Shown: positions 18,559-32,000 of the stretch, in pieces
How positions within the stretch are numbered: the first letter of the stretch is position 1
How the letters are laid out: each line of letters begins with the position of its first letter
NCBI RefSeq assembly: GCF_900095195.1
Contig: NZ_LT606950.1
Location: 787,207 to 819,206 of the forward strand
Reading direction: 5' to 3'
Source: Polynucleobacter necessarius
GTDB taxonomy: Bacteria > Pseudomonadota > Gammaproteobacteria > Burkholderiales > Burkholderiaceae
Length of the DNA: 32,000 bases
Made by a program: the position numbers and the translations under genes
Notes under the pieces: generated by a model
Database searches by the model: none
What the model saw: only the letters and a program-made list of their open reading frames with translations
What the model was told of the DNA's origin: nothing

Positions 18559-19770
18559 CTAGTGAAAAAGAGGTTGTTGTGTAGGGGTATCTTCTGGCAT
18601 TTCGGCATGCACTGCCTCACCAGATCGATCGGGGAATAAAGGGGCGCCACAATCGTCACACAATTCTGGATCAAACAACATCGCGTGACGAAAAACGTCT
18701 TCCACACCCGCATCATGCAATGCATCACAAATCTTTTTGATGAGGCTTTCATCGTCGGATAAATCATTTAGCGCATCATTCGCAACGCTCTCACGATCGT
18801 AGAGTGGCCAAATCACTCCATACATCACCTCGGGTAAACCCTTGGCACTGAATGAAATGCGATATTCATCTGCCTGTTCCTCACCGAACGCACCTACCAC
18901 GCAAGATAAACCTGCTGGCAAGATGCCCAGTGTGCTCTCGAGAAAATTCACTGCGGCACGGATACATAAGGGGCGAACATGTTTGACGGCCAATCGGCAA
19001 TTCGTAAAATAGGTTTCTGGTAGTAAAAGCTCAAATTCACAACCAGGCAACATGGCTGCAATCGCATCGTGCATAGCGTTTTGCCAACCAATCAAACTCA
19101 CTCCACGCTCTTGCCGTGCGGGCGACTCTTCTTGCCATTTAAAAATAGGCGAACCGCTCGGCGCACTCAGTGCTGCGACGATAAATCGCGGATCAGCAAG
19201 AACCGCGATCGTCTCCGACATATCGCGCAACTCTAGCTTGACGTCTTTACCAGAAATCGCAGCATTTGCTAGCGCCTCAGTAAGCACACGAGTTTGGCAA
19301 TGCGAGTGTGGCATCTGATCAATACTGTAGAGCCAAGGTACGATGGCTAAGCGCGTATCTGTTGCAGCAATAGCACCGTGCAAGGCACTGGCCGTTGCCT
19401 CAATCACGTTGGCAGGCAATGGGCCTGAGGGAATCTGATACCGCGTATGCGCAACAATTGGCATCGCCAACAAAAGTACATCCCACTGTTGGCCCTCGTG
19501 TTCCATCTTGAGAGACTCGGCTAGCGTTTCAGCGATATCTGCCAACACCTCAAACGCCACAGTATTAATCCGGAAGGTTTGATCGAGCGCAGCATCAATT
19601 ACATTTTGATTTTGACTTTTGAGCAAACGCATTAAGCGCACATTCAGACGCTCTTCCCAAAAACGGTCTTCAACTTGACTACCCGATGCAGCCAAGGAGA
19701 TCGCATCTGCGACCAGTTTTTCGACTTCGGGAGAACTGCGTTGCGAGGGTTTGGTGCGATGCACTGCCAT
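18559..19770 (-). CDS. conserved hypothetical protein (I recall this as DUF2863-like; unverified)
   Basis: 403-aa intact ORF. Its stop is adjacent to the terminator and its start overlaps the yaaA stop by 1 nt. I recognise no catalytic motif. Confidence 0.65.
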   Translation of the reverse strand: MAVHRTKPSQRSSPEVEKLVADAISLAASGSQVEDRFWEERLNVRLMRLLKSQNQNVIDAALDQTFRINTVAFEVLADIAETLAESLKMEHEGQQWDVLLLAMPIVAHTRYQIPSGPLPANVIEATASALHGAIAATDTRLAIVPWLYSIDQMPHSHCQTRVLTEALANAAISGKDVKLELRDMSETIAVLADPRFIVAALSAPSGSPIFKWQEESPARQERGVSLIGWQNAMHDAIAAMLPGCEFELLLPETYFTNCRLAVKHVRPLCIRAAVNFLESTLGILPAGLSCVVGAFGEEQADEYRISFSAKGLPEVMYGVIWPLYDRESVANDALNDLSDDESLIKKICDALHDAGVEDVFRHAMLFDPELCDDCGAPLFPDRSGEAVHAEMPEDTPTQQPLFH

Positions 19771-20546
19771 TACTTTTTCTCAGCTCGTCTAAAAACGGGT
19801 TTATCGGGTTTGGAGTCTGCGGCGTAATATTTGTATCCGTCCAGATTAAACCCTTTTAGGTCCGCTGGATCGGTAATCCGATTTTCAACAACGTATCTTG
19901 CCATGAGTCCACGGGCACGCTTGGCATAGAACGAAATAATTTTGTATTTGCCGTCCTTAGCATCCTGAAAGACTGGAGAAATTACAGGACAGACCAAATC
20001 TTTTGGTTGCAAAACCTTGAAATACTCTTCCGAGGCAAGGCTTAACAAAAATGGTTTCTTTTGCGCATCAAAGACTTTTTTGAGGGATTCGGTCACACGA
20101 CTACCCCAAAAAGCGTATAAATCTTTTCCTCGACTACTTTTCAACGAGGTGCCCATCTCCAGTCGGTAGGGTTGCATCAAATCAAGAGGTCGCAATGCAC
20201 CATAAAGACCTGACAAGATCCGCACGTGATTTTGCACAAATTCCACCGCTTTCGCACTTAAGCTCTTAACATCGAATCCATCATAGACATCGCCATCAAA
20301 GGCATAGATCGCGGGCTTACTATTTTCATCGGTAAATTTCTTAGACCAATCCCGATAACGTCCGATATTGAGTACTGCAAGCTGATCGGACAAACCCATC
20401 AACTTAGCAACATCTTGGGGCGCCAATTTCTTGAGGTCGGAGATCAACTTGGCGGACTCGGACACAAACTCGGGTAAGGTGGGCGCCTTAACCTTGACGG
20501 GGGTCTTGTAATCGAGGGATCTAGCAGGTGAAAGGACGATCAACAT
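19770..20546 (-). CDS. yaaA: peroxide stress protein YaaA (UPF0246/DUF328)
   Basis: 258-aa ORF with the MLIVLSPARSLDY N-terminus characteristic of YaaA. Confidence 0.88.
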   Translation of the reverse strand: MLIVLSPARSLDYKTPVKVKAPTLPEFVSESAKLISDLKKLAPQDVAKLMGLSDQLAVLNIGRYRDWSKKFTDENSKPAIYAFDGDVYDGFDVKSLSAKAVEFVQNHVRILSGLYGALRPLDLMQPYRLEMGTSLKSSRGKDLYAFWGSRVTESLKKVFDAQKKPFLLSLASEEYFKVLQPKDLVCPVISPVFQDAKDGKYKIISFYAKRARGLMARYVVENRITDPADLKGFNLDGYKYYAADSKPDKPVFRRAEKK

Positions 20547-20625
20547 GGCACAATTTGCTTATGGTTTTTTTAGGTCATTTCTACCATTCTAGCGACTACT
20601 GAATTTATCTGTCTAAACAGGATTT

Positions 20626-21297
20626 ATGACAACCTCTACCACCCCATCATTTCCGAGTCGACTGCACAGGTTGGTACAACAATTTTTACGGTGATGTCTG
20701 CGCTAGCCACCCAACATCAAGCCATTAATTTAGGACAAGGTTTTCTGGATTTTCCCTGCGATCGCCATTTGATTGCCAAAGTGAATGAAGCAATGCTGGC
20801 CGATCACAATCAATACCCCACATTGATTGGTATTCCCAGCCTACGCAATAGAATTGCTCAAAAGATTCAGAATTTGTACGGCCATCAATACGATGCCGAT
20901 TCCGAAATCACGATTACTGCAGGGGGACCCAAGGAATATTAACCGCAATCTTGGCATGCGTTAGTCCTGGTGACGAAGTTGTCATCATTGAACCGGCCTA
21001 TGACAGCTATAGACCGTCGATTGCGTTAGCGGGCGGCAAAGCAATTGCGGTTTCGCTAGAAACGATTCGCAATTCTAGTGGGCAAGTAAGCTCGTATGCC
21101 ATTCCCTGGGGTGCCCTCCAAAAAGCCATTAATCCGAAGACGCGCTTGATCATCATCAACACACCGCACAATCCCACTGGCATGGTTTGGCAAAAAGCCG
21201 ATCTTGATCGTTTGGCGAATTTAGTAAAAGAAACCAACGCTTTGATTTTGAGTGATGAGGTCTATGAGCACATGGTCTATGACGGTGAAATACAGCA
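20626..21297 (+). pseudogene. YbdL-like class-I/II (methionine) aminotransferase, N-terminal two thirds; two frameshifts, then truncation by an inversion breakpoint
   Basis: The ATG at 20626 gives MTTSTTPSFPSRL. Net -1 shifts near 20665 and near 20928 lead through (P)QVGTTIFTVMSALATQHQAINLGQGF and ITITAGG to QGILTAILACVSPGDEVVIIEPAYDSY...NTPHNPTG...LSDEVYEHMVYDGEIQH. The reading then runs into unrelated (inverted) sequence. Confidence 0.85.
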
Positions 21298-21766
21298 CCC
21301 CATAAAGACACTTAGCTTCGTTAGTGTACCGATTGATTGCGTACTCAATTTTCTCGGGGGCGTACAAGCGGAAGCGATGGTTTTGCCCAAACATGGGGTC
21401 TAAGCCACCCATCTGGAACATCAGCCACTGCAAGACCTCGTATTTACCTCGTGTAGATTTAGGTAAGAACTTGCCAGCTTTACTGGCAAGGTAGAGCAAA
21501 ATAGCGCCGGATTCAAAGATGCTAATGGGTTTGCCATCCGGACTGTTGGGATCAACGAGCGCGGGGATCTTATTGTTAGGACTGATCTTCAAAAAGGTCT
21601 TCTTGAACTGATCACCAGCACCAATATCTACCGGATGTGCAATCCAGTCTTTGCTCAAACGATAGTTGCATTCTTCAAGCATGATGTGAACCTTGTGGCC
21701 ATTGGGGGTGGGCAAACTGTAGACATCAATGAAATTTCCAGCAGCAGGGGATGATTTTATGGCCAT
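21298..21766 (-). pseudogene. Nu-class glutathione S-transferase (YfcG/YghU-like), N-terminal part (about 156 codons)
   Basis: Reads LPTPNGHKVHIMLEE...ISPNNKIPALVD...IFESGAILLYLA...AINRYTNEAKCLYGVL. The ORF then continues into antisense aminotransferase sequence (YFTVIDHV...), which is not GST-like. Confidence 0.85.
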
Positions 21767-21802
21767 AAGTTTCCCTGAATGGTTCTTTGTTGTTCTAATC
21801 TG

Positions 21803-22331
21803 TTAAGTGGGGATTGCCTGTAAACGCTTTAGCGCTTCTGCTAGCGTTTGTTCTTGTTTAGCAAAACAAAATCGTACAACGCCTGATTCCGTTGGCTCCT
21901 CGTAAAACGCGGAAACCGGAATCGCAGCGACACCGATATCGGTTGTCAGCCACCGACAAAAGTCCGCCTCGGATAATTTCGCCTGGGGAATATTCAAGCC
22001 AGAATAGTCCACGCATCGAAAATACGTTCCAGGCGTTGGCAATAGCGTAAAGGGCGTTCGCTCAAGACCGGCTCTAAAAAAATCCCGCTTCGCTTGATAG
22101 AAGGTCGGCAAGTTTTGGTAATGCGACGGATCTTCAAGATAGGATGCTAATCCAAACTGCATTGGCGTGTTCACAGTAAAGACATTGAATTGATGAACTT
22201 TCCGGAACTCTAACGTTAAAGCTGCCGGCGCTGCAACATAGCCCACCTTCCAGCCAGTGACATGATAGGTCTTGCCAAAATTTGATATTAGAAAACTCCG
22301 CGTCGCCAGCTCGGGATGCGATGCCACGCTA
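21803..22331 (-). pseudogene. YbdL-like aminotransferase, C-terminal third (inverted)
   Basis: Reads (QH)SVASHPELATRSFLISNFGKTYHVTGWKVGYVAAP, which carries the PLP-lysine motif, through to a normal C-terminus. It continues exactly where the plus-strand fragment stops. Confidence 0.85.
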
Positions 22332-22603
22332 TGCTGGACACGCAGTTGAAAAATAATCCATATATCTGTGGAAAAGAGTATTCGATTGCTGATATCGCTA
22401 TTTATCCATGGACCCGAAATTGGAAAAACCAGGGTATTGATATCGCGGATTTTCCCAACTTCAAACGCTGGTTTGAAAAGATCGGTAAACGCCCTGCTGT
22501 CGTTCGAGGGTGTGAAGTATTAACCGCATTACGTAAGCCCTTGCATGATGACAAGGCGAGAGAGCAGTTATTTGGAGCAACGCAGTATCAACGAAGGAAA
22601 TAG
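22332..22603 (+). pseudogene. Nu-class GST, C-terminal domain
   Basis: Reads LDTQLKNNPYICGKEYSIADIAIYPW...FPNFKRWFEKIGKRPAVVRG. It continues exactly where the minus-strand GST fragment stops. Confidence 0.85.
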
Positions 22604-22604
22604 G

Positions 22605-23041
22605 ATGAGCATTCAATCGGTTGGTGTAATCGGTGCAGGCACCATGGGTAATGGCATTGCACAGGTATGTGCAGTTGCTGGTTTAAATGTGGTGATGGTC
22701 GATATTAATGACGTAGCTGTGCAACGTGGTCTTGATCAAATCAGCAAAAGTTTGGATCGACTCGTCAAAAAAGAAACATTAACTACTGAAGCTAAAGATG
22801 CCGCGCTCAAGCGAGTCCTGAAGATATCGATGCCGGCATGAAGCTGGGCTGCAATCAACCGATTGGTCCTTTGGCATTAGCAGACTTAATTGGTTTAGAT
22901 GCCTGTTTAGCAGTGATGGAAGTCTATTTTGAAAACTTTAGCGATTCCAAATACCGCCCCTGCCCACTCCTACGTGAAATGGTTGCCGCCGGCTACTTAG
23001 GTCGCAAGACTGGACGTGGCGTCTACACTTACGATAAATAA
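22605..23041 (+). pseudogene. 3-hydroxybutyryl-CoA dehydrogenase with a large internal out-of-frame deletion
   Basis: The N-terminal 71 aa (MSIQSVGVIGAGTMGNGIAQ...AALKRV) are fused near 22817 to the C-terminal roughly 74 aa ([28 protein letters not shown]...[13 protein letters not shown]) in another frame. The central half of the enzyme is missing. Confidence 0.85.
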
Positions 23042-23058
23042 GGCTTGGATTCTTTAAC

Positions 23059-23564
23059 TTGAATAACATCATCGTGAACACCAGCAACAATCCCATTCCA
23101 CCGCTTGTTTTAAAACTTGGCTACGCAGGCCTCATTCCATTTATTGGCTTGGCGCTTTTAGTACGACTTGCGCCAACCCCGTTAAATTATCTAAACGCAG
23201 AATCATTGGCTGGGTATGGTGCAGTGATCACCTCGTTCATGGGTGCATTCATTGGGGCGCAAACCTTCACACCATCGGGAGGGCTCCAAGTGGCGATCGC
23301 TGGATTGACCGTAATGCTTGGATCTGGGGTGTCATTCCTGCTCTGGTTGCCTGGGTCGCGTTGCATATTTACATTCCTGTCGGACTATTGATCATGGCAT
23401 CGACATTGATCATTCAACGCAATATTGATCAAAACACCTATCAATACTATTTTGCAGATGATGTCACTCGCGCAGCGTTCATGGTCATGCGCAATCGCTT
23501 GACGTATATTGCTGCCGCCTGCCTCACTTGGGCAGTGATTGTCATTCTCTTTATTCAAGCTTGA
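23059..23564 (+). pseudogene. DUF3429-like membrane protein, one frameshift
   Basis: Reads LGYAGLIPF...YGAVITSFMG, then a net -1 shift near 23246. The continuation IHWGANL...WGVIPALVAWVAL joins track ORF 23361-23564. Confidence 0.7.
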
Positions 23565-23568
23565 GGGT

Positions 23569-24889
23569 ATGAGCGGTCTTTTTGACAGCACTCCACCGCC
23601 GCCACTGGCGGAAGCGCTGCGACCTAAAACTATTGATGATGTTATTGGGCAAACCCATCTTCTAGCGACTGGTAAGCCATTACAACTCGCCTTTGCGTCA
23701 GGCAAGCTCCATTCCATGATTCTCTGGGGCCCGCCGGGCGTTGGCAAAACAACCTTAGCACGCCTGTCGGCGAAAGCATTCGATCGAGAGTTCATTGCCA
23801 TCTCCGCAGTACTTGCTGGCGTTAAAGAAATACGTGAAGCAATTGAGCAAGCCCAGCAGAATATGGCGCAGTACGGAAAGCAAACCATTTTATTTGTCGA
23901 TGAAATTCATCGGTTTAATAAAAGCCAACAAGACGCACTGCTTCCGCATGTGGAGTCTGGCTTGTTTACCTTTATCGGCGCCACAACTGAAAACCACCTC
24001 CTTTGAAGTCAATTCAGCGTTACTGTCACGTGCCCAAGTCTACGTACTCAAGTCTTTAACTGCAGCTGAATTAAAAACCCTATTTGAGCGTGCGCATCAG
24101 TATGCAATGCCTGACGTGCAGTTTGATTCTGCTGCAATCGATACATTGATTAGCCATGCCGATGGCGATGCTCGTCGTCTATTAAACCTGGTTGAACAAG
24201 TCCGCAATGCCATTCAGACACCGAATTCCTCTGTAAACAGCGTAGATCAAACTTTTATTGACAATGCCCTTACGGTACAAGCAAGGCGCTTTGATAAAGG
24301 CGGCGATCAATTTTACGATCAAATCTCCGCATTGCATAAATCCGTTAGGGGCTCAAATCCAGATGCAGCACTCTATTGGTTTTGTCGCATGTTCGATGGT
24401 GGAGCTGATCCACGATATCTTACCCGCCGCATTATTCGCATGGCCTGGGAGGATATTGGTTTGGCGGATCCGCGCGCAATGCAATTGGCAAACGATGCTG
24501 CTTTAACGTATGAACGACTAGGCTCACCGGAGGGAAAGTTGGCCTTGGGACAAGCAGTGGTGTATTTGGCAGTCGCATCTAAAAGTAATGCAAGCTACAA
24601 AGCGTTTAATGCCGCGCGCGCTTTTGTCGCAAATGATCAATCGAAACCTGTACCCGAACACCTGCGCAATGCCCCTACCAAACTCATGAAAGAACTTGGT
24701 CACGGCAAAGAGTATCGTTACGCTCACGATGAACCCCATGGCTACGCTGCCGGTGAATCGTATTTACCCGATGGAATGACTCAGCCTCATTGGTACGAGC
24801 CGGTTGAACGTGGGTTAGAGAGCCAGATTAAAGAAAAAATGGCCTTCTTACGCCAATTGGATACCGAATACAAAACTAAATCGGACTAA
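23569..24889 (+). pseudogene. rarA: replication-associated recombination protein A (AAA+ ATPase RarA/MgsA), frameshifted
   Basis: Reads MSGLFDS...[13 protein letters not shown] (Walker A), [12 protein letters not shown] (Walker B) and GATTEN. There is a net +1 shift at about 23994-23998, and (P)[18 protein letters not shown] continues in the ORF that ends at 24889. Confidence 0.88.
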
Positions 24890-28599: not shown

Positions 28600-29337
28600 A
28601 TGAGTCAAATTGCTTGGTTAGGACCAAACGATTCCTTTCCCAATCCTCTGCAAAAACCCGACCCCGATCCTAACGTCCCTGGATTGATAGCTGTCAGCGA
28701 ACGAATTTATCCCGGTCAATTGTTGCAAGCGTACCAACGCGGTATTTTTCCATGGTACTCCGATAATCAGCCTGTTTTATGGTGGTCCCCAGACCCCCGA
28801 ATGGTTTTGCAACCCCAACACTTTAAATGCAGTGAGTCATTACAAAAAGTCATACGGCAGTTTTGCCAAGACTCGCAAAGTCAATTGCTAGTCGACACAG
28901 ACTTTGGTGCCGTGATTCGCGCGTGCGCAACCAGCATTCGCAAAGATCAAGACGGCACTTGGATCACCCACGAAATTATCGATGCGTACACCACCTTTCA
29001 TGAACAAGGCCATGCCCATTGCATCGCCCTTCAAGAACAAGGTGAACTGATTGGCGGTTTATATTGCGTTGCCTTAGGGGGTATGGTCTTTGGTGAATCA
29101 ATGTTTAGCCGTAAACCCAACGCCTCTAAAATAGCTTTAGCAGCCTTGAGCGCATGGTGCATTGAGCATGGGATGGCGATGATTGACTGCCAGCAGGAAA
29201 CAGCTCACCTGCGCTCTCTAGGCGCTGTGCCCATTTCTAGAGCTCAGTTTTTAGATCAACTGCAAATCTCGCTAAATCAATCTAATATTGAGTTACCTTG
29301 GACTTTTGATAAGCAGATCCTGACTCACTGGCTATGA
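28600..29337 (+). CDS. aat: leucyl/phenylalanyl-tRNA--protein transferase
   Basis: 245-aa ORF with [26 protein letters not shown] and FGESMFS. Confidence 0.93.
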
Positions 29338-30056
29338 CTCGGCTCAAAGAACCTCCCTTAACCGCCATACAGTTTTACGCAACTGCACCCTACCCATGCA
29401 GTTCTCAAGTAGCCACACCATCGCACCTCATTCATGCTGATGTCTATAACGAGTTACTGAATGCGGGTTTTCGTCGGAGAGGTCTGTATACCTATCGCCC
29501 GTATTGCGATCACTGCAAAGTGTGTATCGCTACTCGGATTTTGGTTGACCAATTTCATCCAACCCGCAGTCAACGTCGCGCCTGGAAAAAACACAGTGGT
29601 CTCGAGGCATTTGTTCTGAATCTCGGATACCAAGAAGAGCACCACCAACTCTATCAACGCTATCAAACACAACGGCATGCTGGTGGCGATATGGACAACG
29701 ATGACCAAGATCAGTACATGCAATTTTTATTGCGAAGCCGGGTGAACTCCCGCATTGTTGAGTTTCGGGATGGGGCCCACGATCCGCATCCAGGACGGCT
29801 ACGCATGGTCAGCATGATTGACATTCTGGAGCAAGGCATCTCCTCGGTATATACCTTCTATGACAGCTTGGATTCCACCGCAAGCTTTGGTAACTACAGC
29901 ATTCTGTGGCAAATCGAGCAAGCGCGGGCTCTCAAACTTTCGTATTTCTATTTGGGCTACTACATTAAAGAGAGTGAAAAAATGTCGTACAAGGTGAATT
30001 TTCAGCCCATGGAAGGATTGCTTGACGATCATTGGCAACCATTGACTGGTTCATAA
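29334..30056 (+). CDS. bpt: arginyl-tRNA--protein transferase family (bacterial Bpt, aspartate/glutamate leucyltransferase); possible in-frame deletion
   Basis: 240-aa ORF with [42 protein letters not shown] and LGYYI. A 4-nt ATGA overlap couples it to aat. The segment after PCS looks about 8 residues short (see findings). Confidence 0.8.
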
Positions 30057-31234: not shown

Positions 31235-32000
31235 ATGAGCACGGCCAAAACAGTCAAAACCACCAAAAATACTGGGGAAGTCGCCAAGACTGCCATCCAG
31301 GTGGTCGACCGTATGATGAATTTGCTCGATACCCTTGCCATACACGAAGAGTCGAGCAGCCTCAAGGCACTCGCTGAAGAAACGGGTCTCCACCCTTCTA
31401 CGGCTCACCGCATCCTCAATGGAATATGGTCCCTGCCGACTGGTTGAGCGTGGCGATGGTGGCCCTATAGACTGGGTTTAAAACTATTGGAGTTAGGCAA
31501 TCTTGTGAGAAAGCCCGCTTATCGGTTCGTGAAGCCGCTCAAGGTCCAATGCGCACCCTGCACAAGTTAACCGGTGAGACGGTTAATCTCTCAGTACGCC
31601 AAGGCGATGAAATTGTGTACATCGATCGCGCCTATAGCGAGCGTTCAGGCATGCAAGTGGTCCGCGCTATTGGAGGTCGCGCACCATTACATCTAACTTC
31701 CGTTGGAAAACTATTTCTGGCAAGCGACGATGCAAATCAGGTTCGCGCCCATGTGACTCGCACTGGCCTTTCTGGCCATACACGCAACAGCATTACCGAT
31801 TTAGCCAAACTCGAATCTGAACTGAAATCTGAACTGAATCATGTACGCAGAGTGGGGTAGCGCGCGAGACGATGAAGAGCTGGAGCTTGGCGTGAGTTGC
31901 TTGGCTGCATCCATCTTGGATGACACCGGCAAATTGGTAGCCGGCTTATCGCTTAGCGCCCCTACTGACCGTATTCAGGCAGATTGGTTGCGCTCCTTGC
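31235..32000 (+). pseudogene. IclR-family transcriptional regulator with at least 4 frame changes (continues past the window end)
   Basis: Recognisable pieces sit in different frames. They are ...SLKALAEETGLHPSTAHRILN, then LVERGDGGP, then YRLGLKLLELGNLV, then RLSVREAAQGPMRTLHKLTGETVNLSVRQGDEIVYIDR...GRAPLHLTSVGK...HVRRVG-stop, then ARDDEELELGVSCLAASILDDTGKLVAGLSLSAP. Confidence 0.8.
31816..31839 (+). repeat. 12-bp in-frame tandem duplication (TCTGAACTGAAA / TCTGAACTGAAT) inside the IclR pseudogene
   Basis: The two units are adjacent and 11/12 identical, encoding SELK-SELN. Confidence 0.6.

Follow-up and report, generated by a model that had tools for sequence, protein, structure and literature searches.

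How did the two halves of an aminotransferase gene, and likewise the two halves of the glutathione S-transferase (GST) gene that adjoins it, come to lie on opposite strands of the 1,550,368-bp chromosome of Polynucleobacter necessarius? The question is raised by a stretch of 32,000 nucleotides of this chromosome, the whole of which we call the window. An earlier note on this DNA had proposed that an inversion with both breakpoints inside genes had swapped the halves between the strands, and all of its coordinates hold to the base: reading of the sequence from 20400 to 23400 and in-silico flipping place the inverted segment at 21298-22331, 1,034 bp, with breakpoints inside the aminotransferase gene and the adjoining GST gene. 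Very probably this is a real, fixed inversion, formed by RecA-independent, microhomology-mediated illegitimate recombination in a genome under relaxed selection, and not a switch; its fixation in the population and its independence from RecA are the parts that we infer, the latter from the 5-bp length of the microhomology. The features of the locus are as follows.

21298-22331, minus strand: inverted segment, reversed relative to all eight related Polynucleobacter loci by blastn (e.g., L001 10465 to 9461) and identified by the in-silico flip
20626-21297, plus strand: 5' part of the aminotransferase gene (YbdL-type, methionine; pseudogene), codons 1 to about 216, from translations, tblastn with the L001 orthologue and the indel list
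21803-22331, minus strand: 3' part of the aminotransferase gene, SVASHPELA...QAIPT plus stop (stop codon 21803-21805), from translation and alignment to orthologues and to YbdL
21767-21802, minus strand: aminotransferase-GST spacer, 36 nt, inside the inverted piece
21298-21766, minus strand: 5' part of the GST gene (YfcG-type, Nu-class), codons 1-156 and the first base of codon 157, with the thioredoxin-like N-domain and the beginning of the C-domain
22332-22603, plus strand: 3' part of the GST gene, (V)LDTQLKNNPY...QYQRRK plus stop, in its original orientation, from translation, the flip and alignments to orthologues and to YfcG
21293-21297, no strand assigned: left microhomology arm, CAGCA, with the crossover somewhere within
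22332-22336, no strand assigned: right microhomology arm, TGCTG

The plus-strand aminotransferase frame stops matching after ...VYDGEIQH (CAG CAC at 21293-21298) and is followed by antisense GST sequence. Its continuation, SVASHPELATRSFLISNFGKTYHVTGWKVGY, is encoded by the minus strand between 22331 and the stop codon, and the minus-strand open reading frame (ORF) 21803-22327 encodes (S)VASHPELATRSFLISNFGKTYHVTGWKVGY...QAIPT, the C-part of the aminotransferase. Reciprocally, the GST gene starts on the minus strand with the ATG at 21766-21764, and its N-part runs down to 21298, within a minus-strand ORF (21221-21766) that encodes the GST N-terminus MAIKSS...NEAKCLYG(V) and then 23 junk residues; the C-part (LDTQLKNNPY...) picks up on the plus strand at 22334, within the ORF 22316-22603 that carries ...LDTQLKNNPYICGKEYSIADIAIYPW...QYQRRK. 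Replacing 21298-22331 by its reverse complement yields, in a single frame, the aminotransferase (ILTAIL... up to the stop codon), the spacer and a complete 246-codon GST. We thus reproduced the restoration, described in the earlier note, of two plus-strand neighbours 36 nt apart. Placing the breakpoint anywhere within the 5-bp overlap gives an identical product, whereas a shift of one base outside the overlap gives a different one, and neither the flip nor the protein alignments reveal a base lost or gained at either junction.

Translation of the flipped sequence gave a single collinear match for each of the restored proteins in Pfam, NCBIfam, the PDB and the orthologues. The restored aminotransferase contains one Aminotran_1_2 stretch (Pfam PF00155, profile positions 81-361) and scores 436 bits against the NCBIfam methionine aminotransferase model PRK09082 (cut-off 420, positions 104-385 of 386), family matches that are obtained after the in-silico flip only. 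Its best match among solved structures is E. coli YbdL (PDB 1u08), aligned over residues 106-384 (E = 3e-78) and unbroken through the junction, and the FGK motif carried on the inverted piece aligns to YbdL Lys236, which we take to be the lysine that binds pyridoxal phosphate. The restored GST comprises GST_N and GST_C (Pfam) on one chain, two domains that lie on opposite strands as the genome stands. Solved structures matched include 4l8e (E = 3e-74) and E. coli YfcG (PDB 3gx0, residues 2-200, E = 3e-66), again unbroken through the junction; the latter is a Nu-class GST that acts as a glutathione-dependent disulfide-bond oxidoreductase. Because its 233 bits against the YfcG-type model PRK13972 (positions 2-201 of 215) fall below the equivalog cut-off of 332, the GST is best described as YfcG-like rather than as a demonstrated YfcG equivalog. 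Compared with E. coli YbdL and YfcG, the restored proteins are collinear over their full length, whereas the P. necessarius genes are each cut in two, the one for the aminotransferase having frameshifts in addition.

Scanning a genome collection with the restored GST retrieved 80 loci, the closest of which belong to Polynucleobacter, with 81-83% protein identity. By blastn, the whole window is collinear with the loci L001 and L002 between about 11.85 and 32 kb and, over shorter spans, with six more Polynucleobacter loci, and the sole exception, found in all eight, is the stretch from about 21290/21317 to 22302/22336, which aligns reversed. In the relatives, the gene order is aminotransferase (398 aa), 9 nt, GST (243 aa) and hbd, all on the plus strand. 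The alignment to related genomes that the earlier note had proposed as a check thus agrees with the inversion that it described. Furthermore, the restored proteins run without a gap through both junctions when aligned with four to five Polynucleobacter orthologues: VYDGEIQH|SVASHPELA is matched by VYDGAQHHSIASHPELA, and YGV|LDTQL by YGVLDGQL. Since the eight relatives are collinear with the window but for the reversed segment, the inversion is, as judged from these alignments, derived, lineage-specific and conservative to the base. The spacer itself differs, being 36 nt here and 9 nt in L001 and L002, and the alignment puts insertions of 9-24 nt around the stop and start codons; the aminotransferase encoded here has two extra residues at its end (..AIPT).

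The reconstructed ancestral breakpoints read GAAATA-CAGCA-TAGCGTG in the aminotransferase gene and, in the GST gene as read from its complementary strand, GTGTC-CAGCA-CCCCAT, an inverted identity of exactly 5 bp with mismatches flanking both sides. Among 200,000 random breakpoint pairs simulated in the same sequence, a microhomology of at least 5 bp arose with P = 0.0054, and the match is unlikely to be coincidental. A repeat search over 19500-24500 found no longer or imperfect inverted repeat at the breakpoints, and the pairs detected elsewhere in this interval, with 70-93% matches, are at chance level; the earlier reading of a 5-bp inverted microhomology (CAGCA/TGCTG) as the only repeat, with no long inverted repeat, therefore stands on both counts. 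At the GST site, the relatives have other codons (GTACTG, GTATTG, GTCCTA or GTTCTT), which means that conservation does not extend to this 5-mer.

When two inverted repeats of the same molecule recombine reciprocally, the intervening DNA is turned around and both repeats are kept. Starting from an ancestral order of aminotransferase, GST and hbd, each encoded by the plus strand, one such exchange, with CAGCA of the aminotransferase gene (codons Gln-His) and the inverted TGCTG of the GST gene (codons Val-Leu) as partners, would have flipped the DNA in between and preserved the two repeats. Five base pairs are far too short for RecA-mediated recombination, for which Shen and Huang reportedly found in 1986 that roughly 20-25 bp are needed, and, because there is neither a recombinase site nor a mobile element, RecA-independent illegitimate recombination would best account for the event. 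Candidate mechanisms are template switching during replication, subunit exchange by a topoisomerase or gyrase, and two breaks rejoined at the microhomology; the last, in the form of two resected breaks, is mildly disfavored because no base was lost or added. In the part of PMC11040001 that deals with bacterial inversions, the routes named besides homologous recombination are template switching, microhomology-mediated break-induced replication (MMBIR) and end joining. The outcome would be a loss-of-function lesion, or a neutral one if the genes had become dispensable by then, and drift would have brought it to fixation while the genome gains pseudogenes.

The event resembles the known illegitimate recombination between very short inverted repeats, in which an intramolecular exchange flips DNA with conservative junctions and without a mobile element or a recombinase. 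The experimental system for illegitimate inversion in E. coli reportedly used repeats of 12 and 23 bp, whereas the case described here involves a match of only 5 bp and is a natural event, apparently fixed, in an endosymbiont. This is a further case of a familiar type of mutation, and it reveals no new mechanism, system or regulatory switch.

Could the segment nevertheless be a programmed, reversible element, an inverton by which a site-specific recombinase toggles both genes? A short segment bounded by inverted sequence and opposite in orientation to that of relatives is indeed what the Hin, Gin and Cin invertases, fimS/FimBE, the Bacteroides invertons and the shufflons have in common with this locus, and the likeness goes no further. 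Recombinase sites are typically roughly 10-30 bp, and the arms here are 5 bp, with no flanking inverted repeat of such a length; CAGCA and TGCTG are ordinary codons, at which the bases of the relatives differ, synonymously or non-synonymously. No recombinase, invertase or transposase was found by Pfam among the 20 ORFs across the window, which match housekeeping families only; the remaining genes match the L001 orthologues one to one, and collinearity with L001 leaves no room for an inserted gene-sized element from 11.8 to 32 kb. All eight relatives have the segment in one orientation. The flip does not exchange promoters or coding ends but leaves both ORFs destroyed, and the aminotransferase would be dead in either orientation. 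Promoter and terminator scans returned fewer sites than in shuffled sequence, with no sigma-70-like promoter match upstream of the detached minus-strand pieces, and nothing in these scans points to a regulatory role of the inversion. Taken together, these observations make a programmed switch extremely implausible and support the view, already expressed in the earlier note, of illegitimate recombination rather than a site-specific or phase-variable switch. The statement that no insertion sequence (IS), recombinase gene or long inverted repeat is nearby was likewise borne out by the ORFs, the repeat search and the collinearity. An inversion mediated by an IS or a transposon was considered separately and rejected: the breakpoints lie directly in coding sequence, with orthologous sequence on both sides and no IS element or IS ends, there are no copies of a mobile element at them, and no transposase domain occurs in the window. 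Scans of the 32 kb also returned no tRNA and no Rfam RNA. An artefact is another alternative: DNA of ciliate symbionts is often amplified before sequencing, and the chimeras that arise in multiple displacement amplification (MDA) are typically inverted, with short microhomology at the junction; the true chromosome could then be collinear with the relatives, the inversion having been introduced by such chimeras or by the assembler. We find this very unlikely. A chimera yields one junction only, usually accompanied by a deletion or duplication, and differs at random from one molecule to the next, so that it would not dominate a consensus, whereas the two reciprocal junctions are both found here, perfect to the base and without loss or duplication. 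A 5-bp repeat is, moreover, far below the k-mer of an assembler, so that the assembly graph should be unambiguous at this point, the chromosome has the closed size of 1.55 Mb, and the other lesions nearby are not sequencing errors of the homopolymer type. We also think it highly improbable that the segment is still flipping or heteroplasmic among polyploid chromosome copies, or that small inversions bounded by microhomology are recurrent in repair-degraded Polynucleobacter symbionts.

A further question is whether the inversion, taken as real, inactivated anything. The aminotransferase is not an intact translatable gene, being split by the inversion, which cuts off about 176 C-terminal codons including the FGK motif, and carrying, upstream of the breakpoint, two independent 1-bp deletions at about 20665 and 20924 (indel list; tblastn with the L001 orthologue moves through frame 3 and then frame 2); downstream of about 20924, the flipped gene has about 300 codons without a stop or frameshift. 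In the free-living Polynucleobacter sp. JS-Safj-400b-B2 (L002:8793-9989), the orthologue has a TGG-to-TGA nonsense codon (...HNPTGMI*), and because of it the aminotransferase appears to be dispensable in the genus, outside symbiosis too; the gene here may have died before the inversion. These lesions, together with replacements in the GST at 12 of the 137 residues that do not vary among relatives (e.g., W to L in YSWPTPNGHK and R to C in EAKR) and the fact that most neighboring genes are pseudogenes, would fit a neutral passenger that hit two genes already nonfunctional or dispensable, a possibility that we take seriously while considering it the less probable one. Against it, the restored GST has no stop or frameshift over its 246 codons and keeps the TPNGHK motif, and the inversion, which cuts off the C-terminal 89 codons, is the only demonstrable disabling lesion in this gene. 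Hence, the earlier claim that one event inactivated two genes is sustained for the GST, in which no other lesion is seen, and not for the aminotransferase, which may already have been dead by its two deletions. Residues invariant in five relatives are changed here at 8.8% in the GST and 7.2% in the aminotransferase, as compared to 2-5.6% in intact neighbors, which is consistent with relaxed constraint on both genes; with every gene of this lineage accelerated and synonymous divergence (dS) saturated, the signal is a weak one and does not settle the matter.

Several points weigh against a fixed, microhomology-mediated inversion under relaxed selection and temper our confidence in it. A match of 5 bp is short enough to occur by coincidence, about once in 200 cases. 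The searched collections contain no sister genome near enough for dating the inversion: out of 5.8 billion proteins, the homologue most similar to the GST is 85% identical, and an attempt at dating from the ratio of nonsynonymous to synonymous divergence (dN/dS) found dS saturated or undefined relative to the nearest relatives. Aside from the two 5' deletions, the restored genes are otherwise unbroken, a slightly surprising state for an old inversion, given that the neighboring pabB-like pseudogene has at least three frameshifts. Finally, a 24-mer across the left junction had no match in metagenome contigs, a result that is uninformative since a control 28-mer from yaaA had none either.

The inversion lies in a region of gene decay. 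Eight intact proteins encoded in the window are identical to RefSeq proteins of P. necessarius (taxid 576610), whose entries for this DNA fall within WP_114662480-WP_114662533. P. necessarius is described, in the portions of PMC11253213 and PMC4285135 concerned with it, as an obligate endosymbiont of Euplotes with low coding density and many pseudogenes, and Boscaro et al. (2013 and 2017) are the studies of P. necessarius in Euplotes to which passages of PMC9837558, PMC4285135 and PMC11253213 refer. Searches with the proteins of L001 show all 10 genes at 11.8-20.5 kb to be unbroken, among them citrate synthase (gltA), succinate dehydrogenase (sdh), malate dehydrogenase (mdh), DUF2863 and yaaA, as against 9 broken ones out of 13 at 20.6-32 kb, so that decay is sharply uneven along 11800-32000. 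In addition to the aminotransferase and GST genes, the broken genes are the following.

22545-23041: hbd-like gene (3-hydroxyacyl-CoA dehydrogenase)
about 23250: gene for a 135-aa membrane protein
about 23996: rarA-like gene
about 25440: DsbA-like gene
26.2-28.0 kb: pabB-like gene, with the frameshifts given above
about 28441: NUDIX gene
about 31426-31854: last gene of the window

The lesions near the inversion are indels of 1-5 bp, mostly outside homopolymers, and a deletion of 418 bp in hbd. Sequencing error as the cause of the nearby frameshifts was rejected: most indels lie outside homopolymers, some measure 4-5 bp and one lesion spans 418 bp, which is not typical of such errors. The hbd-like gene has an internal loss of about 418 bp at about 22811-22814, together with a change of frame; the loss corresponds to L001 10939 to 11355, residues about 91-227 of 303, and its junction has a microhomology of at most 1-2 bp. 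It is a second structural lesion and lies downstream of the right inversion breakpoint, at a distance of about 480 bp. Elsewhere in the window, a gene resembling arginyl/aspartyl-tRNA protein transferases (29334-30056) has an open frame with an in-frame 24-bp deletion (at about 29401) relative to L001 and L002. The DUF2863 gene (18559-19770) has the opposite orientation in two more distant Polynucleobacter metagenome-assembled genomes (L005:6143-7292 and L006:6098-7289) as compared to the window, L001, L002 and L009, which would be an independent inversion or rearrangement of a single gene that disrupts nothing and belongs to a different lineage.

Both the organism and the syndrome are those of the gene decay known from P. 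necessarius symbionts of Euplotes, in which pseudogenes arise by small indels and deletions under drift. The usual lesions of symbiont decay are frameshifts, nonsense mutations and deletions, to which a small reciprocal inversion that breaks two neighboring genes is an unusual addition; we found no mention of one in the literature on Polynucleobacter symbionts that we searched, which did not include the primary genome papers. For annotation, the four fragments described here are to be counted as two pseudogenes and not as four gene remnants. The locus provides a clean natural case of inversion at a 5-bp microhomology, with no mobile element in 32 kb. If such inversions were a recurrent signature in these symbionts, which we consider highly improbable as stated above, they would constitute an unrecognized route of pseudogene formation in a reducing genome free of IS elements. 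The present case indicates that illegitimate recombination contributes, beside small indels and deletions, to the loss of genes in a symbiont that became host-restricted recently.

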